Shown: one piece after another, positions 4,275 through 55,411 of the stretch
Layout: every line of letters starts with the position of its first letter
Position numbering within the stretch: the first letter of the stretch is position 1
Source of the DNA: an uncultured Candidatus Saccharibacteria bacterium
GTDB lineage: Bacteria; Patescibacteriota; Doudnabacteria; UBA920
NCBI GenBank assembly: GCA_964474825.1
Contig: CAYYWQ010000001.1
Coordinates: 65,420-129,419 of the forward strand
Length of the DNA: 64,000 nt
Direction: 5' to 3'
The notes under the pieces: model-generated
The model's input: the letters and a program-made list of their open reading frames with translations, nothing else
What the model was told of the DNA's origin: nothing
The model's database searches: none
Program-made: the position numbers and the translations under genes

Positions 4275-4876
4275 ATTTCCTCCTTCGTTAATTTTTCCAA
4301 AACCTCAACGTATAACTGGTTTTCTTTTTCCTTTAACCTTTTGTACAAGGTTTCCACAGTGTCGTCAGTTTCAATCTTTTCAAAAGTCTTTCCCAGTACA
4401 GGGCCAAAGTCAAATTCCAAAGTTAAAAAGTGAATGGAAGAGCCGGCGTAAGTTGCTTTTTGGTCTAGGAAGTTTTGGATTGCTTTTTCCGTTAGCATTC
4501 CTTTGTTCCAAAGTCCGAAGCTACCGTCAGCGCATTTTATTGAACTATCGATTGTGTCCGGAATGAGGCCTGGGTGCAGGTTTAATATTTTATTTGGAAA
4601 AGCTAAAATAACTTCGTCTAAAATAATTTGTTTCCAGCCGGCTAGGCAAATGTAGTTGGGGTTTAATTTTTTTAGGAGCGGCAGTAGATCTTCTTTTTTG
4701 GGACAAATTTCAATCGGTAAATTGTTCTCCCGCGCGTGCATGAGTCCGGGAGCATCTTCTTTGTCACAAATTACAGCAGAGATTTCGGCTTTAATTTTTC
4801 CACCTTTAACGCCGTCTAATATAGCTTTAAGGTTTGTACCGGTACCGGCGTTGGAAATAAGGACTGCTATGCGCAT
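4271..4876 (-). CDS. purN: Phosphoribosylglycinamide formyltransferase
   Basis: 201 aa; MRIAVLISNAGTGTNLKAILD N-terminus typical of PurN. Confidence 0.85.
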   Translation of the reverse strand: MRIAVLISNAGTGTNLKAILDGVKGGKIKAEISAVICDKEDAPGLMHARENNLPIEICPKKEDLLPLLKKLNPNYICLAGWKQIILDEVILAFPNKILNLHPGLIPDTIDSSIKCADGSFGLWNKGMLTEKAIQNFLDQKATYAGSSIHFLTLEFDFGPVLGKTFEKIETDDTVETLYKRLKEKENQLYVEVLEKLTKEEI

Positions 4877-6323: not shown

Positions 6324-6527
6324 TTATTCTCCTCCCAGTTCAGGATCAGTTTTAGGGAGCTGGTTATCGCTGTAGTATCCTGCTTTCCAATTTACATCTT
6401 CCGGTGTGCCAGCAGGATGCCCACTAACCAGTAGTCTATTTTCTGTTTTAGCCCTGGCGCCTTTAAATTTTGCTTTAGCTGACTTAATTTCTTTTTCTGA
6501 CGGGCCGCCTTCAAATTCCAATGACAT
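6324..6527 (-). CDS. Small hypothetical protein (sits at the position usually occupied by purS)
   Basis: 67 aa, Lys/Gly-rich, no PurS similarity; tightly packed between purF and purQ. Confidence 0.3.
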   Translation of the reverse strand: MSLEFEGGPSEKEIKSAKAKFKGARAKTENRLLVSGHPAGTPEDVNWKAGYYSDNQLPKTDPELGGE

Positions 6528-7395: not shown

Positions 7396-10368
7396 CTAGT
7401 AGTCCTTGAATTTTTCTTTGTATGCTTTTAATGCGTCTGGAATTTTCAAATCAACAATTTTTTTGTTGTTCCTGTCGGCAATTATCAATTTATCATTTTT
7501 ACTAACCGTTCCAATTTTGGCAAAAATATTTCCGGACATTGCGGATTCAAAAGCTTCGGCGTTTTTTGGGTCAACGGTTACTAAGATTCTTCCCTGGCTT
7601 TCGGAAAATAGTGCTTGGTAGTTTTCTTCCCACTTGCCTGGCAAGTCAGTAAAATTAATTTCGCCCCCAAGTCCGCCACCAGCCAAAGTTTTGATAAGCG
7701 CTGTAATTAAGCCACCACGGGTAATGGATATAGAAGAGGCGATTAAATCTTTTTGTATTGCGTTAAATACAGATTTATATAGTCGGTAGTTTTCTGCGGC
7801 GTCTACAGAAGGAACAGTTACTTCTAGTTGTGAGTCGTTAGTTTCTAGTTGCATGTTATTGTATTCGCTACCGCTAAGTTCATTGTTTGTTTTTCCTAAA
7901 ATATAAATAACATCGCCCGGCATTTTGGCGTCTAGGGATACTGTTTTGTTTACATCCGGCACAACTCCTATAGCTGAAATTAAAAGTGTCGGGGGAATGG
8001 AAATTTTTATGCTTTTGCCGTCTTTGTCAAACCCTTTAAAGTCGTTATACATACTGTCTTTGCCGGAAATAAAAGGGGTGCCAAAAGTGGTGGCGTAGTC
8101 AAAACAGGCACGCGCCGCTTCCTTAAGTTGCCAAAGCCTTTGCGGGTCTTCTGGGCTGCACCAGCAAAAGTTGTCTAATAGAGCCAGGTAGTCCACGTCT
8201 GCGCCCGCGACAACTGCGTTTCTAATTGCGGTGTCTATTGAGGCAGCTGCCATTTTGTAAGGGTCCAGTTCGCTGTAGGAAGGATACATTCCATAAGAAA
8301 GTATCACGCCTTTTTTGGAGGTAAGAATTGGACGGGTAACAGTAGCGTCTGCGTTTATTCTTCCGCGCCCTTGAAGTGGTTTTAAAACAGAGCCAGCCTG
8401 AACTTCATGGTCGTATTGGGTGTTAACAAAGTCAGTGGAGGTAATGTTCAGGCGGCTTAACAAATTCAAGATTCTAGATTCTAGATTCAAGATTTTTCTT
8501 TGGGGAACTGTTACATGTTTCGTGTTGCGTGTTACATGTTTCGTGTTTTGCTGCTTAATCGGCCTGCCGTTATGCAAAAATTCCATTTCTAAATCTAGGA
8601 CTGTTTGGTTTTTAAATTTAACCACGCATTTTCCGTCTTTGGTAAACTTGCCAATTGTTGTAGATTCCACCCCACGTTTCTTCATCAGCGCAAAAAATTC
8701 TTTCCATTTTTTTGGTGGTACTGCAAAAATCATTCTTTCCTGGGACTCTGAAATCCAAATTTGCCATGGGGCAAGGCCGGGGTATTTTAAAGGAACTTTA
8801 TCGAGCTCAACAACGCATCCGCCGGATTGCGTAGCCATTTCGCCAACAGCACTGGAAAGTCCGCCGGCGCCACAATCGGTTATAGAAGAATACAAGCCTT
8901 TGTCCCGTGCTTCTTTTACAATTGCGTCGCTAAGTTTTTTTTGAGTAATTGGGTCACCAATTTGTACGGCTGTGGCTGGGCTGTGGGAGTCTAAAGTCTC
9001 AGAAGAAAAAGTGGCGCCGTGAATTCCGTCTGCCCCAACTCGGCCTCCGGCTACAACTATTAAATCTCCAGCTTTGGTTTGTTTTACCCAGGAAGGCTTT
9101 CCTTTTATAGAGCGGGGGATTAGGCCAACAGTTCCGGCAAACACCAAAGGCTTTCCTTGGTAGCGGGAGTCAAAATACAAAAAGCCAGAGTTAGTAGGAA
9201 TGCCGCTTTGGTTGCCGCCAGCGTTAATGCCGGAAATTACGCCTTCAAATATTTTACGCGCGGAAAGCATTGGCCGCGTTAATTCTTTGTCCCTATACAA
9301 AACAGTCTTGTCCTGCGGATCTGCAAAGCAAAAACCAAATGTGTTAATAATCGGTTTTGCTCCTAAACCAAAACCCAAGCAGTCCCGGTTAACGCCAACT
9401 ATGCCGGTAATGGCTCCGCCAAAAGGGTCCAGTGCTGAAGGTGTGTTATGAGTTTCTACTTTGTGGGTAATAATATTGTCTTTGTCAAAAACTATACCAC
9501 CGGCATTGTCTGTAAACACGGAAACACAAAAATCTTTTCGTCCTTTTTGTTTGCGTATGGCCTGCGTTGCGCCTTTTATAAAAGTTTTGTAAAGACCTTG
9601 CTGTAAATTATCAATCGGATCTGCAAAAATTGTGTGCTTGCAGTGTTCGCTCCAGGTTTGGGCCAGGGTTTCTATTTCTACGTCGGTTGGCTTACGGCCG
9701 AGCTTGTTAAAGTAATTGCGAATAACTAATAAATAATCCAAACTTAAAGATAGGGGACCGCGGCGGGTACCGTCACTATCTGCAATTCCCAACTTCCCCA
9801 ATTTCGCCAGTTCATCATCTTTAACATTTAAATCCACCCTGCTTACTTTAGTGGAAGCTGTTAGTTTTACTTTTGGTGCGACTAAATCCATTCCGCTGTC
9901 CTGCTTAAAATTAGCAAAAGATTTTAAAGAAGCGCGCTGAATGAGTGGGTTGTATAAACTGTTTTTTATTTTTTCAATTTCGATACGTGTCACGCCGCCT
10001 GAAATAAAAAACACCTGGGACGTGTAAACGTGTTGTCCAGATGTGAATTTCACTCTTGCTCCATCTTCCAAAGTTTCTTTGGCCGTGCTGCCAACGTTGT
10101 CTGTAACTCCGGGTAGGTAGCCTATTTCAATTGCGTAATCAAATTTGCGTGGTGCGTCTAGAGTTACAGAAGCTTTCTCTATAATTGGGTTGGCGAGAAG
10201 CGCCTGAGCCTTTTCTATTTGCTGTTTGTTTAGCTTGGTGTCTATGGTATAACAGTCCGCTACCCACACTGCTCCCAATTTGCTTTTGAGTCCCAAGCTT
10301 TCGAAATATTTTTTCTTAGCCTGGCCTCTGGTGTCGGGGATTGTGGGCTGAATATATAGACGGAGCAT
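7396..10368 (-). CDS. purL: Phosphoribosylformylglycinamidine synthase with N-terminal PurS-like domain(s) fused (PurS-PurL)
   Basis: 990 aa; residues ~1-80 resemble PurS (…LLANPIIEKASV); a second possible PurS-like segment ~aa 95-165; PurL N-linker TDVEIETLAQTWSEHCKH; FGAM synthetase halves (ILNLLSRLNITS…QYDHEVQ); internal 7-aa tandem repeat insertion NTKHVTR-NTKHVT. Confidence 0.85.
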   Translation of the reverse strand: MLRLYIQPTIPDTRGQAKKKYFESLGLKSKLGAVWVADCYTIDTKLNKQQIEKAQALLANPIIEKASVTLDAPRKFDYAIEIGYLPGVTDNVGSTAKETLEDGARVKFTSGQHVYTSQVFFISGGVTRIEIEKIKNSLYNPLIQRASLKSFANFKQDSGMDLVAPKVKLTASTKVSRVDLNVKDDELAKLGKLGIADSDGTRRGPLSLSLDYLLVIRNYFNKLGRKPTDVEIETLAQTWSEHCKHTIFADPIDNLQQGLYKTFIKGATQAIRKQKGRKDFCVSVFTDNAGGIVFDKDNIITHKVETHNTPSALDPFGGAITGIVGVNRDCLGFGLGAKPIINTFGFCFADPQDKTVLYRDKELTRPMLSARKIFEGVISGINAGGNQSGIPTNSGFLYFDSRYQGKPLVFAGTVGLIPRSIKGKPSWVKQTKAGDLIVVAGGRVGADGIHGATFSSETLDSHSPATAVQIGDPITQKKLSDAIVKEARDKGLYSSITDCGAGGLSSAVGEMATQSGGCVVELDKVPLKYPGLAPWQIWISESQERMIFAVPPKKWKEFFALMKKRGVESTTIGKFTKDGKCVVKFKNQTVLDLEMEFLHNGRPIKQQNTKHVTRNTKHVTVPQRKILNLESRILNLLSRLNITSTDFVNTQYDHEVQAGSVLKPLQGRGRINADATVTRPILTSKKGVILSYGMYPSYSELDPYKMAAASIDTAIRNAVVAGADVDYLALLDNFCWCSPEDPQRLWQLKEAARACFDYATTFGTPFISGKDSMYNDFKGFDKDGKSIKISIPPTLLISAIGVVPDVNKTVSLDAKMPGDVIYILGKTNNELSGSEYNNMQLETNDSQLEVTVPSVDAAENYRLYKSVFNAIQKDLIASSISITRGGLITALIKTLAGGGLGGEINFTDLPGKWEENYQALFSESQGRILVTVDPKNAEAFESAMSGNIFAKIGTVSKNDKLIIADRNNKKIVDLKIPDALKAYKEKFKDY
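8464..8491. repeat. Heptanucleotide tandem array (ATTCAAG/ATTCTAG x4) inside purL
   Basis: Read directly; followed at 8510-8547 by a 21-nt-period direct repeat gttacatgtttcgtgtt(gcgt). Confidence 0.8.
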
Positions 10369-10499
10369 TATTAGGTGTTAGCTATTAGCTTTTAGGTGTT
10401 AGGAAGGGTAGAAAATAAAAATATCTTCCAAAAATGAGGGGTGGAAGATGAGGTTGATTTTGCTAGTTTCTGCCAATTTCTCAGCGCGTCTGTTACCCG

Positions 10500-10930
10500 C
10501 AGTCTAGCAGGAAAATTGGGTCTGGTCAAATTTGATAGGGATAGGGAGGTGAGACTTGCCTTGACCTCCCTGTGTTTGTTTATCGCGTTTCATCAGAGCT
10601 GATCCTTTTCCCTTCTGCAAGTCTGCTTTAAGACCGGTTCCCGTGGGGATCCGGACCGGTTTGGGAATAAGTCTCGAAGTGCCGCATAGGGCGGTCTGGG
10701 GCGTAGAAAGCGCGCGGCTAGAAGTATTGTAGACTTTGCGGCAAAGCCTAGAATTCTTTGTTGCCAGTCGGCTTCCAGAGGCCAAAACCCCTCCTTGGGG
10801 GTTGAGTTGGTGGCTGCTGGGACTAAGCGACGCCGAGCAGCCGAGGAATCTTGGGCAACCAGTTATAGCAAAGCCTGTTGGCCAAGAAAACTAGAAATCC
10901 GCATCCTGCAAGTTGAACAGAGGACGGTTC
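10500..10930 (-). other. GC-rich structured non-coding region upstream of purL (candidate leader/riboswitch-like or ncRNA)
   Basis: ~430 nt, ~57% GC in ~40% background, no convincing ORF (only low-complexity frames), multiple nested stems (e.g. ACCGGT…TCCC-GTG-GGGA…ACCGGT); same strand and upstream of purL start at 10368. Confidence 0.3.
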
Positions 10931-11059
10931 CATAAATAGAGTATATAACAAATTTAGAAAAAATAAAAAACTCCCAAAAAGAAAAAATGGGGAGGGTGTA
11001 ATACAATATCAGCCGGACCCGTTTTAATCTGCGTACCTTATTTTTTACCAAAAATGAGG

Positions 11060-11340
11060 AGCCCGGAGAAGAGCTCTTGTAACGGTTAGTTGCAAGGGCA
11101 TTGCCCTTCTCCGGGGGTTTAAAACGGGGGCAAACAAAATAGCAGTAAGTTCTTAGCAGTGAAAGCGCCGTCCCGTTACGGCGCTGCGGGGTCCTACAAC
11201 CTTCCGGTTTGCATTTTTAGATCATCCAGCGCGCAGTTGCAAACCGAAAGGCCTGGGTCATTGGCCTTCCTCCTTCTTTTGGATTGTTCGTGTTTCCTCC
11301 CTTTCGGAAGGCGAACGGTTGGCCTAACGTCAGCCATCTA
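11060..11340. other. Second GC-rich structured non-coding patch
   Basis: 10-bp inverted repeat CCCGGAGAAG…CTTCTCCGGG (11068-11122) with nested AAGGGC-ATT-GCCCTT hairpin; no supported ORF. Confidence 0.25.
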
Positions 11341-11469
11341 ACGATAGTATAAGTATTTTTAAAAAAGTGTCAATAAAAAATTTTACAAAAGAAAAACCGA
11401 ACAGTGGTTCTTTGTTGAACGGCGTCCTTGCGGATGCTGAAAAACAAAAAAGTTGTTCGGATTTTCTTC

Positions 11470-11512
11470 GGGAGGAAAATGTAAGAATTAGGAACCGGCC
11501 CGCGGGGGCCGG
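11470..11512 (-). terminator. Hairpin plus T-rich tail downstream of the 42-aa ORF
   Basis: 7-bp GC stem, 4-nt loop, then TTCCTAATTCTTACATTTTCC on minus strand. Confidence 0.4.
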
Positions 11513-11545
11513 GTGTTTCAGTGACTGCAACTGCGATCTGCGTTC

Positions 11546-11674
11546 CTAGCTGACGTCGCCGGTCGAATTGCTGGCTTCCACAGTGAAAACCGAGATGCTC
11601 GTGGCGCCGGCGGTGTCGGCCTTGTAGTTCCAGCGGTTGTGGCCCATGTTGTTGCGATTGTTGCGTTTCTTCAT
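11546..11674 (-). CDS. Candidate 42-aa small protein (MKKRNNRNNMGHNRWNYKADTAGATSISVFTVEASNSTGDVS) in GC-rich patch
   Basis: AGAGGAAA RBS 5 nt before ATG (11674); followed on its strand by GC hairpin CCGGCCC-GCGG-GGGCCGG (11495-11512) and T-rich tail; below the 60-aa ORF-track cutoff. Confidence 0.3.
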   Translation of the reverse strand: MKKRNNRNNMGHNRWNYKADTAGATSISVFTVEASNSTGDVS

Positions 11675-12018
11675 TTGGTTTCCTCTAATCGGACAAATTT
11701 CTCTCGAAGAACTAAATAGGTACTTGGGAGTACCAAAGTTTGCTCGGTGAAACCGAGCCTACTTTTTTTATTAGTCCTCCGATAGATGTTAGGATTGTAT
11801 AAGACCCTAATTTTTTTGTCAAATTTTTTCTCTAGAATATGGGGAGTTTTTATTTTTGCCTTAAATATGAGGGAATTTGTGTTTAATAAATTTTAGTAAA
11901 ATTTACATAACTAAAGTATTGCAAAATAATCCCCAAATTTGTCTTTAAAACTGGTCTGGGTCCCAGGTTAAGGCGTGTTATAATTATTGTGCTTATGTAA
12001 TCAAGCCGGAATAAATCT

Positions 12019-13134
12019 ATGCCACGACCTAAAATTTTTGAATCCTTTGACCTTTTAAACTCCGAAGAGGCCGGGCAAGAGGCGGAACAAAAGACTCCAC
12101 ATATAGAAAGAAACCCAAACGATTTAAGTTTAAGGAAATACATAGAGGCTTACGCTGTTTCTTTGCCGGCAATTGTCCGTAGTTTTCCCAGGGGTAATTT
12201 GGACATGCGCGCTTTGGAAGCCCACTATTGGGACAGGTTAAAAAAATACTATCCGTACGACGACTTTAAGGCGGTAAGAATTGAAAGCAAAGAAGAAATT
12301 GAGTTTATAAATACTGCTATTAAAATGATAGAGGGCTGGTTTTATAAAGGCCAATGGACTTCGTGTTTGGCACAGCCTAGTGAAGCAGAAATAAAAGAGG
12401 CTTTAGAAGGGCGGCAAAATAATTTTTTACAAAAAGTTAGGGCGAATAAGCAAATTCCAAATTTGGGAAGGGATCGCAAAGGAGTTAGGCTTCCTCCAAT
12501 GCCCGATATTTACGAAGATGCGCAATTCTCTAAGGATTTGCCGCAAGTTTACAGGGAACATGCTTTTAAATTTTTTCACAGTCCGGCCGCGGTAATGAAT
12601 ACTCTGACTAAAGTTGAAACAGTAAGGAAAGTTGAAGTTAATGACGCGGCTTTCTTAAATTTAATTACCTCTGCCCAAAACCACGCAGAGAGCAAGTTGG
12701 CCGAGTGGTCAAAGTCTCATAAGGGTAATGCTGTAACATCAAACGATGCTGAAATATTAAGGCAGTCCGGGAGAGTAATGAAGATGGAGCCGGGGTACAT
12801 TAGGCATAACCCTAGAAATAAATTTAAGCGCGAGTTGTTTTTTATGAAAACTTGTATGGCTGGCGCTGAACTTATGAGAAGGTCAAATACTGAAAATGGC
12901 GAATTAACATTGGATAATTTTGAAGGCATTATGGATTTGTTAAAGCAAGAAATGGCAAGAGCAAAAGAAGAAGGAAGGGATCCTAACTACCTTCCTATGG
13001 ATTTTGCCGGGGGAGATGGAAAAGAAAAACCTTATAGCCAATCAAGTTCATTGCATGTAAATACAAAAGAGCTACCAATTGCTTTAATGGCTGTAGACTA
13101 TTTACGGCAAAAAAATATGGCTGTCAAAAGATAA
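12019..13134 (+). CDS. Hypothetical soluble protein, no recognisable domain
   Basis: 371 aa ORF with AT-rich upstream region; charged/helical composition. Confidence 0.55.
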   Translation: MPRPKIFESFDLLNSEEAGQEAEQKTPHIERNPNDLSLRKYIEAYAVSLPAIVRSFPRGNLDMRALEAHYWDRLKKYYPYDDFKAVRIESKEEIEFINTAIKMIEGWFYKGQWTSCLAQPSEAEIKEALEGRQNNFLQKVRANKQIPNLGRDRKGVRLPPMPDIYEDAQFSKDLPQVYREHAFKFFHSPAAVMNTLTKVETVRKVEVNDAAFLNLITSAQNHAESKLAEWSKSHKGNAVTSNDAEILRQSGRVMKMEPGYIRHNPRNKFKRELFFMKTCMAGAELMRRSNTENGELTLDNFEGIMDLLKQEMARAKEEGRDPNYLPMDFAGGDGKEKPYSQSSSLHVNTKELPIALMAVDYLRQKNMAVKR

Positions 13135-13163
13135 TAAAAAAATCCCTAAAAAGGGATTATTCG
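13134..13163. terminator. Bidirectional terminator-like hairpin (ATCCCT-AAAA-AGGGAT) flanked by A7 / T-rich
   Basis: Immediately after 12019..13134 stop; the A7 run reads as T7 for the convergent minus-strand gene 13288..13674. Confidence 0.45.
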
Positions 13164-13287
13164 CCTTGGCTATGACTGAGACGGATTTTTTTATGAAATA
13201 AATAATAAAGGGAGTGGCGGCTCCCGGGGCGGGACAGTTGTCTTGCGACAAAAGTCCGCCGTTCGTTAGCCGCCACATATGCGGTCG

Positions 13288-13674
13288 TTAAATCCCGTCC
13301 CAAGACAGGGGTAACGACCGGAACGACTTTCCTCCGCAGAAGAGATCGCGGAGGAGGTCTTCCACTAGGAGTGGTGCCCGCCAGAAATCCTGGTCGGGAA
13401 ACCCAGGTGGATGTAGGTTCGGCCCCGCATCGTATGATGCAAGTATCACCCTAGTGTCGTGCCACGAGACGTGGTCGATGATCGGGGACAGCTCCTGCAT
13501 CGTCATCGCGCGAGGCGGGGTGAAGAATGCTGTTGTGGTTTGCCCGGGCGCAAGAGTCGGCCCGGACAGAGACATTTGTCCCGACAAGGGCGGGGCGATG
13601 TCATAGGTTGAAATGAATCCTACGGCTAGGCCGTAGAACATCATTCCGGCAATCAAAGTAACCACTCGGCCCAT
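13288..13674 (-). CDS. Hypothetical membrane-anchored protein in GC-rich island (start set to inner ATG with AAGGAG RBS)
   Basis: ~128 aa; AAGGAGAAGGAA upstream of ATG at 13674; one N-terminal TM helix; ~60% GC; 9-bp GC hairpin GTGGCGGCT…AGCCGCCAC plus T-rich tail downstream (13205-13270). Confidence 0.4.
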   Translation of the reverse strand: MGRVVTLIAGMMFYGLAVGFISTYDIAPPLSGQMSLSGPTLAPGQTTTAFFTPPRAMTMQELSPIIDHVSWHDTRVILASYDAGPNLHPPGFPDQDFWRAPLLVEDLLRDLFCGGKSFRSLPLSWDGI

Positions 13675-13825
13675 TTCCTTCTCCTTATGCAAAGCATCCG
13701 AACGATGCCTATAGTATCTGCCCCTCCTACGATTTGGGGGTCAAGATATTAAAAGTATAGAGGAAAAAGAAAAAAATATAAATATGTTGTAATTAAGGCA
13801 AATGATATTCAAAAGGCTTTGCAAA

Positions 13826-13853
13826 GGTTTGTTTTAAAATGCTACAATTGGGA
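13826..13853 (+). promoter_or_regulatory. Sigma70-like promoter TTGCAA-18 nt-TACAAT
   Basis: Good -35/-10 match with 18-nt spacer, ~20 nt upstream of ATG at 13874. Confidence 0.45.
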
Positions 13854-13873
13854 AAATTCACGAAGGTTTTCCA

Positions 13874-14053
13874 ATGAAAGTTCGTCTGAAAATCGGGCGG
13901 AAAAAGAAGCCGCTCAAGCCGTCCCCGCCTGAGCCACCAAAGCCCGAGCCCCATTGTCCTCCTGCGACGCAGGATTGGGCAAAGGCCAACGAAAGGGCAA
14001 GGCGAGGCAAGGAGCCCGATGTTTTTTCACTATTTACGAAACGGCTGAAATGA
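13874..14053 (+). CDS. Candidate 59-aa Lys/Pro-rich basic protein (MKVRLKIGRKKKPLKPSPPEPPKPEPHC…)
   Basis: Preceded by the TTGCAA/TACAAT promoter; GC-rich; overlaps antisense track ORFs 13858..14148 and 14030..14215, which I consider less likely. Confidence 0.3.
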   Translation: MKVRLKIGRKKKPLKPSPPEPPKPEPHCPPATQDWAKANERARRGKEPDVFSLFTKRLK

Positions 14054-14200
14054 GGTCCGTCCTCTATTTCTGTCCCGGCGGCCCATGATGGTCCGCCTTT
14101 TTCTTTTGTAATATTTTTTACTCTTGACCAAATATTTTTTTTGTTCAAAAATTAACCTACTGGCGCTACGGGCGCCAAATTCACTCCCAAGAGGAGGAGA

Positions 14201-14567
14201 CGTGAAGAAGTTCATTTTTCAAGTTTGGGAAAATTCCAAACTTCGCAATTGGGCGTACACCCTGGCATTTCTGCTAATCGTGCCAGTCGGTGGGCGATTC
14301 TCCTGGTTCGCGTGGCAGCACGGAAACGGGCTGGATCGCTTTCTGGTGATCGTCACCGGCCTGGTCATGGGCGCTCTGGCGTCGGTGACGCTTTATCGTT
14401 TCTGGCAGGTGTTGCCAGTTGCGACTTCGCCAGAAAAGCCGGTCGACTTCCCGCCGATGTCCGAGGAATTCGATGTGCTTTCGGACTTGGACAGGAGCAA
14501 CGTGCACAATCGTCTGATTGCACGTGATGCAGCCGCTCTGGGCTGGCCAGCACAACGGGTTCATTAG
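14201..14567 (+). CDS. Small two-TM membrane protein in GC-rich island (GTG start after GAGGAGGAG)
   Basis: RBS GAGGAGGAG 4 nt before GTG at 14201; two hydrophobic helices; ~60% GC. Confidence 0.4.
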
Positions 14568-14671
14568 TTGAACGCCGCCGGCGGGGGACACCAAACCTCG
14601 CCTTTTTCTTTTGGCTGTGAAAAGCTATAATGAAGTTAAGGGTTTACGGTATTAGTTAGCAAGGCGCATAT

Positions 14672-15379
14672 ATGAGGAATAAAATTAAATTAGCTATATT
14701 TGACATAGACGGCACAATATTCCGTTCGTCTTTGGTTATTGAGCTTAGTCATGCTTTAGTAGAGGCCGGGGTTTTTCCGGCATCGGCAAAAAAAGAAATT
14801 GCTAAGGAATATTTGGCATGGCTGGACAGGAAGGGGAGTTATGAGGCTTACATAAACAAAGTTGTAAAAATTTATGTTAAGCACATTGGCGGCCAGAATT
14901 TTACCCAGGTTAAAAAAATTGCCCAGGAAGTCATTCATTTTCAAAAAGACAGGGTTTATAGGTTTACGCGCGACTTAATAAAAAAATTAAAACATCAAAA
15001 TTATTTCTTAGTGGCTATTTCCGGCTCTCCTTCTTATATAGTAGGAAGCTATGCCAAAGCTATTGGCTTTAATTTATTTTTTGGCACAGAGTTGGAAGTC
15101 AAGAACGGGAAATTTACAGGCAAGGCCGTAAGTTTAGACAGCGCTTACAACAAGGCAAAAATAGTTAAGAGTTTGGTAAAAAAATATAACATTAGCTTAA
15201 AAGAATCCATTGCCGTGGGAGACACTGAGAGCGACGTTCCCATGCTAAAGTTAGTTGGCAAGCCTATGGCGTTTAACCCTAATTTGCAATTAGCAAAGGC
15301 AGCACAACGTAACAAATGGGCTATTGTTGTTGAACGAAAAGACGTGATGTATGAAGTTAAGAATTTTAAGCTACTTTAG
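14672..15379 (+). CDS. HAD-IB family hydrolase (phosphoserine-phosphatase-like)
   Basis: 235 aa; IFDIDGTIF motif I, AISGSP motif II, VAVGDTESDVPM motif IV. Confidence 0.7.
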   Translation: MRNKIKLAIFDIDGTIFRSSLVIELSHALVEAGVFPASAKKEIAKEYLAWLDRKGSYEAYINKVVKIYVKHIGGQNFTQVKKIAQEVIHFQKDRVYRFTRDLIKKLKHQNYFLVAISGSPSYIVGSYAKAIGFNLFFGTELEVKNGKFTGKAVSLDSAYNKAKIVKSLVKKYNISLKESIAVGDTESDVPMLKLVGKPMAFNPNLQLAKAAQRNKWAIVVERKDVMYEVKNFKLL

Positions 15380-53146: not shown

Positions 53147-55411
53147 TCATGCTTGACCCTCCTCCACCGGTGGCGGATCGGCCGGCGGCGGTTCCGCGGG
53201 CGGATCGCTGGGTTGCGGTGTCGGTTCCGGTTCCGGGTTAGGCTCCGGTGTTGGAGCTGGTGACGGATTCGGATTTGGATCTGGTCCTGGTTGGGGTGGC
53301 TCTTGTCCTGCTGTATCACCCGGTGGCGGAGCCACCAAGGTCAGCTTAATCCATCCGCTGGACTTGCCGTCCGCACGAACCACACGCAGCCAGAGATCTC
53401 CTGGTGCCGGGTAATCCGCAGGGAGAGGTAAAAACATGGACTTGGTGTCGTTGAATGTTGCTGTCCACTTGGTGTGGTCCGCTAATTCAACAACGGCGCA
53501 TTCTGCCGAACAGCCAGGAGTTGTCAGGAAGTTTCCAAGGATCTGGAAAGTAACTCCGGGCCATAGCTCCGAGCGTTCGGGCTTTTCGGCATTTACCACC
53601 GATCCGATCTCGGGCGGAGGTTGGACAACCTCAACCTGAATCGGTCCTGCCGAGGCGGTGTTACCGCGAGCGGAAGCACGGACAGTGAAGCTGCCGTTTT
53701 CCATGGGCGTAAAACTAACACATTTGTCGCTGACGCTGTCAGCGGCACCGAAATCCCGGATGTCTCCGGAAATCCCGGCCCACGTAATGACCCACGTGGA
53801 GGGTTGTTCGCTGGTAGTGAAGCAAGCCGCAGTAGGCTTACCTAAGTCCAGCGAAGTCGGCGTCACCGTGAACTTGGTCACGGCAATAGGTCCTGGGGCA
53901 TTGGTCACGGTGATGTTGAGCGGCAGACTCCACGCAACACCTGTGTTGCGGTTGGTGGAATACGTCTGAAGCTCATAGTTACCAGCCTTGGGAACGTTGA
54001 CAACAGCGTCGTCGCTCCGAAGGATCTGGTTGGATTCGTACCCGGTTGCCTTAGTGTAGAGGACAGTGGTCCAGTCTACACCGAAACATCCGGCGCACCT
54101 TAGCGAGATAGGAGATCCCGCAAAGAAAGGTGCCTTCGTGGTCAGTTCAAGCAGGGGCTTGGGAAATACCAGCGGAACAGTCCCGCCGCCTTCCTTTGCT
54201 CCAGTTGCGTAAACCGTTCCGGCGTCGTCCATGTAAATGGAGCCGGCAACGATACCGTTGAGTTTGAACTTCGCCGTAACATCACCGGGTAAAACCAAAT
54301 TATACGTCTGGCCTCCGGTTTCCTTCAGGATCAGCTTGCCCGGTCCTGGAGGATCAAAGGATGTTGGGAACGTGAGGAAGGCGATTCCGGCGGCGCTAGT
54401 CGCTGCCGAAGATGCTTTGAGGTTTTGTGCTCCCGAGGTACCTCGAGCTACGAGGGTAAGCTTGAGGGTGACGGGATCCAGAACTGCGAGTGCGTTGGCA
54501 TCAAACCTTGAAGAGCTGATTGCTATAGCTCCGTTCGGTCCTGCTGACAAATAGCAGCACTCTACCGAGTCCTGGAACAGAAAGTCGGTCGCCGAGGTTA
54601 CAGCTAAGCGCGCACCGCCTGCGAGTCCGACAACGTAGACGTTGTCGTGATTCAGAGCAGCACTAGTTGTAACTGCAAAGTAGTCGCCGGTGGCAACTAC
54701 GTCTTTTATAACCAGACCTAGAGACCAAGGCGTTACATCAGCGATCTCACCACCTTCTGGGGGGATTTGAAAAATCCGCCAGTTGCCTTGGAGGTAACAG
54801 CTCGTATAGAGCTTGCCGTCCTTGGCAAGATTGACTGTGGTGAATTGCGCCGGGATGCCCAGGGTTTTAACTATGGTTTCTTCGCGCAGCTTGAAAGGAA
54901 AGAGCTGGCGATTGTTGAGGGGGGAAAACACCCTTAGATCAGCTGTAGACACTGTGAAGATCGTGTCATCAAGCCACCCGAATTGTGGAGATCCTGTGAC
55001 GTCGCTGATTGTGGAGACTGCCACATAGCGGTCGTCAACAGAGAGGTTGCCCATGAACGGATCGACATAACTTGCCGGCCCTACATGGTAAAACAACAGT
55101 TTGCCGCGCCGTTGACCTGGATTTGGTAGGCCAGCTTTTGCGGCCAACTCTTCCATGGTTCCGACATATTGCATCGAGGAATCAATCCCTTTGCGGAGCA
55201 CGTAGAGGGAGTGCTCTCCCGTAGCGGTACCCAGCACACAAGCCCTGGTAAGGCGTGTTGATGAGCTCCTGCATTGAAAGGCTGCAGGAAGGCCGTCTAA
55301 AGCAGTATCGACCGAGACGAATCGCCCCGGAACGATACCGACTTGTTGTGACCAAGCGTTACCACTAAAAAGCAGTAGTAACACTAAAAGAGATGCAAGT
55401 TTGAGCTGCAT
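53147..55411 (-). CDS. Large secreted protein encoded by GC-rich island, Pro-rich C-terminal tail
   Basis: 754 aa; signal peptide MQLKLASLLVLLLLFSGNAWS; ~58% GC; GGAGGTGA RBS 5 nt before ATG; C-terminal PEPNPEPEPTPQP tract; no recognised domain. Confidence 0.55.
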   Translation of the reverse strand: MQLKLASLLVLLLLFSGNAWSQQVGIVPGRFVSVDTALDGLPAAFQCRSSSTRLTRACVLGTATGEHSLYVLRKGIDSSMQYVGTMEELAAKAGLPNPGQRRGKLLFYHVGPASYVDPFMGNLSVDDRYVAVSTISDVTGSPQFGWLDDTIFTVSTADLRVFSPLNNRQLFPFKLREETIVKTLGIPAQFTTVNLAKDGKLYTSCYLQGNWRIFQIPPEGGEIADVTPWSLGLVIKDVVATGDYFAVTTSAALNHDNVYVVGLAGGARLAVTSATDFLFQDSVECCYLSAGPNGAIAISSSRFDANALAVLDPVTLKLTLVARGTSGAQNLKASSAATSAAGIAFLTFPTSFDPPGPGKLILKETGGQTYNLVLPGDVTAKFKLNGIVAGSIYMDDAGTVYATGAKEGGGTVPLVFPKPLLELTTKAPFFAGSPISLRCAGCFGVDWTTVLYTKATGYESNQILRSDDAVVNVPKAGNYELQTYSTNRNTGVAWSLPLNITVTNAPGPIAVTKFTVTPTSLDLGKPTAACFTTSEQPSTWVITWAGISGDIRDFGAADSVSDKCVSFTPMENGSFTVRASARGNTASAGPIQVEVVQPPPEIGSVVNAEKPERSELWPGVTFQILGNFLTTPGCSAECAVVELADHTKWTATFNDTKSMFLPLPADYPAPGDLWLRVVRADGKSSGWIKLTLVAPPPGDTAGQEPPQPGPDPNPNPSPAPTPEPNPEPEPTPQPSDPPAEPPPADPPPVEEGQA

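Follow-up and report, generated by a model that had tools for sequence, protein, structure and literature searches.

A predicted orphan small gene and lineage-specific GC-rich non-coding DNA in a variable interval upstream of purL in a Patescibacteria genome

Introduction

Short open reading frames (ORFs) within folded bacterial transcripts have been described as small-ORF mRNAs and dual-function small RNAs (sRNAs), such as SR1/SR1P of Bacillus subtilis (39 amino acids, aa), RNAIII/hld of Staphylococcus aureus and SgrS/SgrT of Escherichia coli, and as the leader-peptide attenuators trpL, hisL, thrL and pheL. Bacteria of the Candidate Phyla Radiation (CPR/Patescibacteria) have small, tightly packed genomes, and to our knowledge almost nothing is known of their small proteins and regulatory RNAs. 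Here we analyze the interval upstream of purL in a stretch of 64,000 nucleotides (nt) from an uncultured Candidatus Saccharibacteria bacterium (contig CAYYWQ010000001.1, positions 65,420 to 129,419; this whole stretch is the window below). We describe in it a predicted orphan small gene, unit 1, with counterparts upstream of purL in related genomes, along with two blocks of lineage-specific GC-rich non-coding DNA, units 2 and 3, and a conserved purL promoter.

Unit 1 resembles the dual-function sRNAs in being a predicted monocistronic transcript of about 400 nt with a 30–45-codon ORF between folded untranslated regions (UTRs), and in having RNA parts conserved at least as well as the peptide. 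It differs from them in showing no sequence or Rfam relationship, in the extreme GC content of its third codon positions (GC3), in its Asn-richness and in being found so far in four lineages of one CPR clade. With the attenuators it shares a short ORF enriched in a single amino acid, a hairpin by the stop codon and, downstream, a terminator that might pair in an alternative way, whereas it has no regulated gene past the terminator, a separate purL promoter, a strong Shine–Dalgarno (SD) site, strong codon bias and its own structured leader of 110–210 nt. In having a GGAGGA box within a stable 5′-proximal structure, unit 1 also resembles 5′ mRNA stabilizers, both the SD-like type (STAB-SD of Bacillus thuringiensis cry3A) and the 5′-terminal stem-loops of the ompA and aprE leaders, but in unit 1 this box is predicted to be paired in a helix, P1, and not free for 30S subunits.

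The gap as a whole lies upstream of a purine biosynthesis operon, as do the purine-pathway riboswitches (purine, ZTP, PRPP, 2′-dG, xanthine and 8-oxoguanine), but it has no covariance-model match to them even at E ≤ 10, and its GC-rich blocks are unconserved and outside the proximal leader. A tRNA split by a group I intron is known in the phylum (PMC13011429), and such tRNAs resemble the gap in holding structured insertions of several hundred nt which standard annotation may miss. The gap differs in having no tRNA halves, T-loop motif in context or RF00028 match, and ARAGORN was negative even with introns of up to 1200 nt, so tRNA, tmRNA and intron-split tRNA were rejected.

The purL locus and its GC-rich blocks

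The gene at this locus, purSL (7396–10368, minus strand; 990 aa), encodes PurS fused to PurL, the FGAM synthase (Pfam AIRS, AIRS_C, FGAR-AT_linker and PurS). We accepted its start at 10368, and the proteins of relatives align from residue 1–3. Its nearest relatives in three very large collections are from uncultured Patescibacteria at no more than 69% identity, with none closer in any collection searched; a Logan assembly contains an identical contig of 9.4 kb, the contig is found in SRR14271365, and the source record measures 1.21 Mb. The start of purL is separated from a divergent 371-aa gene by a gap of 1650 bp (10369–12018), which no other ORF-free stretch of the window comes near in length. 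We compared it with 175 related purL loci, of which L001, L082, L162, L163, L170, L171, L173 and L175 are named below.

Three GC-raised blocks reported in this gap are indeed present, with GC contents of 0.527 at 10500–10930 (patch 1), 0.514 at 11010–11330 (patch 2) and 0.592 at 11490–11680 (patch 3), and the spacers between them (0.24–0.33 GC) carry promoter-like sites. The premise of an AT-rich genome did not hold: the window is 44% GC and 13.6% of all its 200-nt windows reach 0.515 GC, so the contrast of the patches with the window is real but modest. Perfect GC-rich hairpins are about five times denser in the gap than in the window overall (hairpin scan). The stems described in the initial annotation are likewise present, and compared with shuffled controls folding is significant at 11005–11340 (minus-strand z = −3.3, plus-strand z = −3.6) and at 11480–11790 (z = −4.0, minus strand), but the largest patch, 10490–10940, is no more stable than its controls (minus-strand z = −1.6, plus-strand z = −1.9). 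The same annotation saw no supported ORFs, which stands for patches 1 and 2, where neither codon periodicity nor a Pfam match was found, and is wrong for patch 3, which holds a 42-aa ORF with an SD site, an ATG and a GC3 of 0.86. Protein similarity in one of the low-complexity frames, along with no Rfam match and no conserved structure in relatives, was to have overturned the structured-RNA interpretation; patch 3 comes close to this, though it is recognized as coding by periodicity and positional conservation and not by similarity to a known family. The three patches are three different things, not one structured leader; the observation is partly confirmed and the earlier interpretation partly supported.

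With moderate confidence, we read the interval as four independent modules in a row, all on the purL (minus) strand, whose transcription and translation are predicted. Unit 1 (about 11787 to 11385) would be a monocistronic small-gene transcript running from a near-consensus sigma-70-type promoter to a terminator; it would be strongly transcribed, its folded 5′ and 3′ ends may protect it from exonucleases, and its ORF is probably translated into a fast-evolving hydrophilic peptide. Units 2 and 3 (11338–11010 and about 10940–10540) would be lineage-specific and non-coding, between unit 1 and the purL promoter, and purL would be transcribed from its own conserved promoter (10529–10501) with a short, weakly folded leader of 125 nt that matches no known riboswitch.

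Unit 1, a predicted orphan small gene

The features of unit 1 are as follows.

11794–11822, minus strand: predicted promoter, TTGACA-17-TACAAT (promoter scan, 11/12 consensus)
11700–11786, minus strand: 5′ leader, predicted three-way junction (minimum free energy z = −7.3)
11674–11546, minus strand: predicted small ORF of 42 aa, MKKRNNRNNMGHNRWNYKADTAGATSISVFTVEASNSTGDVS (SD site AGAGGA at 11686–11681, ATG, GC3, gene call)
11495–11512, minus strand: GC hairpin past the stop codon, CCGGCCC-CCGC-GGGCCGG (hairpin scan, fold)
11380–11493, minus strand: 3′ UTR with a long rod-like terminator hairpin (fold z = −5.3)

The sole strong three-base periodicity of the gap belongs to the 42-aa ORF, in which AGAGGA is followed after 6 nt by the ATG at 11674. 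GC contents at its first, second and third codon positions (GC1/2/3) are 0.40/0.48/0.86, 27 of the 42 codons end in C, and not one of 20,000 base shuffles equaled its codon-position bias. Among the window ORFs of at least 30 aa it is the strongest outlier, the long genes having a mean GC3 of 0.43 and a maximum of 0.56, and a public gene caller also predicts it at 11674–11546. Because this periodicity marks an ORF, the GC-richness of patch 3 is a codon-usage effect and not one of RNA structure. A tiny gene may in this way mimic a GC-rich patch of structured RNA, and the composition of third codon positions separates the two cleanly.

Asn takes 8 of the 42 codons, compared with 6.6% in the long genes. 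The peptide has no homologues in protein libraries of 5.8 billion and 1.8 billion sequences, in Pfam or in NCBIfam, and searches with the peptide, a three-peptide profile and exhaustive phmmer returned only itself, the L162 peptide and one low-complexity match. From its codon composition and position we predict the 42-aa ORF to be a new orphan small gene, and patch 3 to be its conserved and presumably translated core with unusual codon bias.

Folded elements flank the ORF on both sides. Upstream, the predicted junction consists of helices P1 (UCGGAGGACUAA / UUAGUUCUUCGA), P2 (GCUCGGU / ACCGAGC) and P3 (GGUACU / AGUACC). The GGAGGA box, which comes 13–21 nt after the −10 box and 90–190 nt before the true start codon, is predicted to pair within P1. 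Downstream, the terminator rod (11469–11388) ends in an apical GCAA loop and is followed by a U-tract. These conserved structures, at 11700–11790 and 11380–11495, lie mostly outside the region that had been singled out as structured RNA.

Counterparts of unit 1 in related genomes

Counterpart ORFs were detected upstream of purL on the same strand in three relatives, whose PurSL proteins are 57–68% identical to that of the window.

L175: ORF of 39 aa, MANFRKANPGAATGAQTNKNNRMKASDVGANAGATFNNR, GC3 0.82
L162/L163/L001: ORF of 36 aa, or 31 aa from the second ATG, GC3 0.83
L082: ORF of 31 aa, GC3 0.81

Together with the window ORF, these are intact frames of 31–42 codons upstream of purL in four lineages, with base-shuffle P values for codon-position bias from below 5e-5 to 3e-3. 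All four have an SD site 5–10 nt from the start (AAGGAG-type in L082 and L175, GGAG before the second ATG in L162), and the ORFs of L082 and L162 (from the second ATG) have equal length and the same end position with different stop codons. Asn makes up 17–26% of the four peptides, which share this richness and a K/R-N-N-K/R/N motif and little else. A composition filter (ATG start, 25–71 codons, GC3 of at least 0.75, GC3 excess of at least 0.3 and at least 14% Asn) applied to both strands of 1.93 Mb of loci returned only unit 1 ORFs, with L175 falling 0.005 short of the required GC3 excess; since the known members were used to derive it, the filter is partly circular.

The RNA architecture is also found in each lineage. 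In all four, TTGACA stands at the same place, 17 nt from the −10 box, and is followed by a three-way or multi-way junction (z = −7.3 in the window, −7.3 in L175, −2.6 in L162 and −3.1 in L082), whose closing helix carries a conserved GGAGGA-N-UAAUAAAA and whose P2 and P3 hairpin sequences are unrelated between lineages. The post-stop GC hairpin occurs in all four, as CCGGGCGCC(GCC)GGG just 1 nt past the stop in L082 and L162, and the distance from stop to hairpin is 1, 1, 16 and 32 nt over the four lineages. So does the rod-like terminator of about 85 nt (z = −5.3 in the window, −6.2 in L175, −3.7 in L082 and −2.9 in L162), which has an apical GNRA loop in three of the four lineages and, within the alignment of the relatives' rods, a compensatory pair.

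The units of L175, L082 and L162 align with one another from promoter to terminator (nhmmer E = 1e-7 to 1e-14), and when the gap and its units were compared with the 175 purL loci by blastn and nhmmer, these copies gave the only matches across lineages. Unit 1 of the window is collinear with them only at nhmmer E = 0.3–0.6. A covariance model built from the 3′ UTRs of the three relatives found its best match in 9000–15000 at 11493–11380 on the minus strand (10.9 bits, rough E of about 0.035), and it found no further members in 1 Mb of loci. The gene next to the L175 unit is 56% identical to the 371-aa neighbor in the window (12019–13134, plus strand), which speaks for an orthologous locus; the corresponding neighbor in L082 is a distant homologue at 23% identity. 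Kept beside purL in four deeply diverged lineages, unit 1 is a testable candidate for an abundant small protein or a dual-function RNA. The 371-aa family adjoins the small-gene unit in three of the four lineages and is itself an orphan: sequence comparison gave no match in Pfam, NCBIfam or PDB.

The purL promoter and proximal leader

The following features lie directly upstream of purL.

10501–10529, minus strand: predicted purL promoter, TTGACC-17-TAGACT with TG before the −10 box (promoter scan)
10369–10494, minus strand: proximal purL 5′ UTR, about 125 nt, weakly structured (fold z = −0.86)

This promoter aligns with one that reads TTGACT-17-TAAACTGCAGGTG immediately before purL in L001/L162 and L173; L082, L170 and L171 have a different one (TTGTTATAATCAAATT). 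The leader contains a terminator-like hairpin at 10449–10423 (AUCUUCCA / UGGAAGAU, then AUAUUUUUAUUUUCU), which spans 10449–10405 with its U-run, and L173 has a counterpart with changed stem bases (CCCUC..GAGGG AUAUUUUGUUUUU). In L082, the stretch from unit 1 to the purL promoter contains three terminator-like hairpins, which argues against an action of unit 1 in cis on purL. The sequence around the −10 box and transcript start, TAAACTGCAGGTG(A/G)AAGGCACCGC in relatives (L162 4876–4905, L173 3066–3095) and TAGACTGCGGGTAACAGACGCGC at 10494–10510 in the window, is conserved and may be an operator.

The initial annotation had proposed a riboswitch, a long attenuating leader for the pur operon or an unannotated non-coding RNA (ncRNA), and these proposals fared differently. 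No Rfam family reached its gathering score anywhere in the window, matches at E ≤ 10 in 10300–12100 were noise (13–22 bits compared with cut-offs of 39–100), and neither the proximal purL leader nor five related loci gave an Rfam match. With no covariance-model match, with patches that lie outside the proximal leader and have no similarity to related purL upstream regions, and with a proximal leader that folds only weakly (z of about −0.9), no support was found for a known riboswitch or other cis-regulatory RNA. The idea of a long attenuating leader made from the GC patches is not supported: the patches are upstream of the purL promoter and interrupted by promoter-like and terminator-like sites; patch 1 does share the strand of the purL leader, as stated, but it is upstream of the conserved promoter and outside the proximal leader. 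An ncRNA, on the other hand, is possible for patch 2, which has a promoter-like site at 11/12 consensus, a significant fold and an asymmetry in G-U pairing, and weak for patch 1. Even if nothing in the interval proves functional, a purL leader here with no detected riboswitch is a useful result. The 64-kb window also contains no tRNA genes and no RNAs recognizable by Rfam.

Units 2 and 3

Between unit 1 and the purL promoter we distinguish the following features.

11346–11373, minus strand: promoter-like site of unit 2, TTGACA-16-TATACT (promoter scan, 11/12 consensus)
11010–11338, minus strand: unit 2 (patch 2), candidate ncRNA of about 285–330 nt (fold z = −3.3)
10540–10940, minus strand: unit 3 (patch 1), GC-rich (0.53) string of local hairpins (fold z = −1.6 / −1.9)

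Units 2 and 3 are lineage-specific GC-rich non-coding DNA in a variable spot that reaches from unit 1 to the purL promoter. Compared in six frames with 14,024 ORFs from related loci and with the remainder of the window, they yielded nothing above noise at the protein level, no matches were found in phage and plasmid collections, and Pfam and NCBIfam scans of all ORFs in the gap had no matches. Global alignment of both units with the GC-rich block of L162 scored no better than shuffled sequences. Each unit holds an AAGGAGG box before a start codon, with ORFs that are short or featureless, including a 93-aa ORF of unit 3 with flat GC1/2/3.

Unit 2 has two separate hairpins, one of 14 bp (11251–11238 / 11213–11200) and one of 8 bp (11185–11164), and a nested structure at 11132–11013 with a 13-bp inner stem (11115–11103 / 11074–11062) followed by CUCCUCAUUUUUGG. 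A terminator-like site at 11076–11059 on the minus strand has a 7-nt gap before its U-run. In each of the inverted repeats I11 and I17, which form the two long helices, the sole DNA mismatch is a G-U pair if the minus strand is read and A-C if the plus strand is, which favors a minus-strand RNA. Like unit 3, unit 2 has no codon periodicity, Pfam matches or homologues in the 175 loci. These features make it a fair sRNA candidate, which is probably made as a minus-strand RNA of about 300 nt.

Unit 3 could likewise be an sRNA, or else read-through sequence or inert filler. It ends in a hairpin at 10545–10570 (GGGAGGU..ACCUCCC), which has no U-tract and abuts the −35 box of purL. At its other end the promoter is uncertain: a possible extended −10 box, TGtTATATA, lies near 10945, and no site there passes the scan.

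Several other identities were considered for these blocks. A repeat, mobile element or template repeat of a diversity-generating retroelement was rejected with no second copy within the window, and a pseudogene or mobile remnant with protein similarity was likewise not found, given the noise-level six-frame comparison and the absence of repeat copies in the window. An integron attC site for the nested stem at 11013–11132 was dropped by eye, as the R″/R′ core motifs are absent.

Alternative explanations

Several points weigh against the four-module arrangement. The starts and ends of the transcripts and the translation of the ORF are all inferred from sequence. The homology of the window's unit 1 to that of the relatives is statistically unestablished at the sequence level and is argued from position, architecture and composition, and the sample of four lineages is too small for a covariation test. 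A defined protein function of the 42-aa peptide is doubtful, because the peptides share only Asn-richness and the K/R-N-N-K/R/N motif and have no database homologues. Lastly, unit 3 has no convincing promoter, U-tract terminator or significant fold, and it could be an upstream extension of the purL leader.

A less likely reading is that units 2 and 3 have no function and are what is left of accessory DNA, inserted or decaying, in a variable hot spot; they may be former GC-rich small genes like those at 13.3–14.6 kb, with stems that are incidental to GC-richness and left-over terminators. Among relatives, the interval from purL to the conserved HAD gene spans 0.27–4.3 kb and its content is unrelated, GC-rich small genes with their own promoter and terminator lie nearby, and the AAGGAGG boxes before short or featureless ORFs, the lack of any conservation and the shuffled-like fold of unit 3 are all consistent with decay. 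However, neither residual codon periodicity nor protein similarity is left in either unit, and unit 2 retains a promoter at 11/12 consensus, a significant fold (z = −3.3) and two helices in which G-U pairs mend the mismatch on the presumed transcribed strand. CPR genomes are compact, and some 800 bp of junk would be unusual in one of them. Such an amount of lineage-specific structured DNA, with comparable unrelated blocks in relatives, marks a variable hot spot that may be a source of new sRNAs.

A rather unlikely extension of our reading of unit 1 is that it represents a new class of regulatory RNA beside the purine operon in one CPR clade, either as a dual-function sRNA whose 3′ rod or 5′ junction acts in trans or as a leader that senses Asn codons. 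If so, the variable GC-rich blocks would be fast-evolving partner RNAs or insulators, and an Asn-sensing leader would let translation couple amide-nitrogen status, through Gln-dependent Asn-tRNA synthesis, to read-through towards purL.

In its explicit form as a leader-peptide attenuator, to which we give little credence, the speed of ribosomes on the Asn codons would pick between the rod and a short GGAACC/GGUUCC terminator hairpin. This choice would set how often transcription runs on into the downstream units and into purL, whose enzyme consumes glutamine, with Asn-tRNA supply as the signal; in many such bacteria that supply depends on glutamine-dependent transamidation. The four peptides are indeed enriched in Asn with the remainder barely conserved, in L082 and L162 a single nt separates the stop codon from the GC hairpin, in the relatives the rod and the shorter terminator hairpin overlap in their 3′ arms so that two alternative folds are possible, and each of the four lineages carries the unit ahead of purL and on its strand. 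Yet no structural or regulated gene directly follows the terminator: next comes a promoter-bounded unit in the window and L162, a separate promoter-bearing small gene in L175, and two further terminator-like hairpins and then the purL promoter in L082. The variable distance from stop to hairpin also fits poorly, both alternative folds end at a U-tract and so both would terminate, and raising purL under a shortage of amide nitrogen would run against regulatory logic.

It is also very unlikely that unit 1 is a purely non-coding or mainly regulatory RNA with an untranslated ORF, in which the periodicity would come from an AAC / ARN triplet repeat acting at the RNA level. In favor of this reading, peptide conservation is very low and homologues were not found, L175, L082 and L162 conserve the UTRs no less than the ORF, and AAC-rich runs resemble single-stranded protein-binding motifs. 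Against this, the periodicity spans the whole ORF in frame in four lineages, including the Ala/Gly/Thr/Ser-rich half that has no AAC repeats, every copy has its SD site at 5–10 nt, and the L082 and L162 ORFs keep the same length and end with different stop codons.

Finally, a long structured purL 5′ leader made of patches 1 and 2, starting at the 11373–11346 promoter or near 10945 and attenuated by internal hairpins or a ligand-binding fold, is highly doubtful: the patches share the purL strand, read-through past the end hairpin of unit 3 at the −35 box is physically possible with no U-tract there, and several relatives have 0.4–1.2 kb of structured GC-rich DNA upstream of purL, but a conserved promoter lies downstream of the patches, the window units have no sequence or detectable structural conservation with those of relatives, no Rfam match and, for unit 3, no significant fold, the equivalent block of L162 ends in two strong terminators before the purL promoter, and other close relatives have only 120–270 bp here.

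The variable interval and its neighbors

The interval from purL to the conserved HAD–glycosyltransferase–oxidase genes is a variable hot spot, since relatives hold unrelated material at the same spot. L162 carries a structured block of 480 nt (4365–4845, z = −4.8) that is unrelated to the window units, L170 (3506–3841) and L171 (3071–3419) have in common a structured unit of about 335 nt upstream of purL that is bounded by promoter-like and terminator-like sites (nhmmer E = 1e-58, z = −5.1), L171 carries one further unit, L175 has an ordinary small gene, and other relatives have almost nothing there. The 335-nt unit of L170 and L171 has no Rfam match and is a candidate new ncRNA.

Beyond the gap, on the side away from purL, we recorded the following features.

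11902–11930, plus strand: promoter-like site of the divergent 371-aa gene, 12019–13134 (promoter scan)
13288–13674, minus strand: GC-rich small gene, 128 aa, N-terminal membrane helix, no family match when scanned
13874–14053, plus strand: GC-rich small gene, 59 aa, Pro/Lys-rich
14202–14567, plus strand: GC-rich small gene, 121 aa, membrane-like, no family match when scanned

The three small genes (53–60% GC) lie in 13135–14671, each with a promoter, SD site and terminator, and with the purL gap they form a GC-enriched variable island of 4.3 kb. PurSL proteins of relatives (e.g., L162 5001–8168) are 40–90 aa longer through in-frame GC-rich palindromic inserts such as ccccggccctcccctcaaaaggggagggagcaaccc, which encodes PRPSPQKGREQP. 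A hairpin of this type also occurs in the purL 5′ UTR of L082 (1640–1690), and the PurSL of the window has none.

Elsewhere in the window, a 67-aa ORF between purQ and purF (6324–6527, minus strand) has positional counterparts of 63–73 aa in relatives and no Pfam match. A 754-aa ORF (53147–55411, minus strand) with a signal-peptide-like N-terminus is 55% GC compared with the 44% background and may be acquired DNA.

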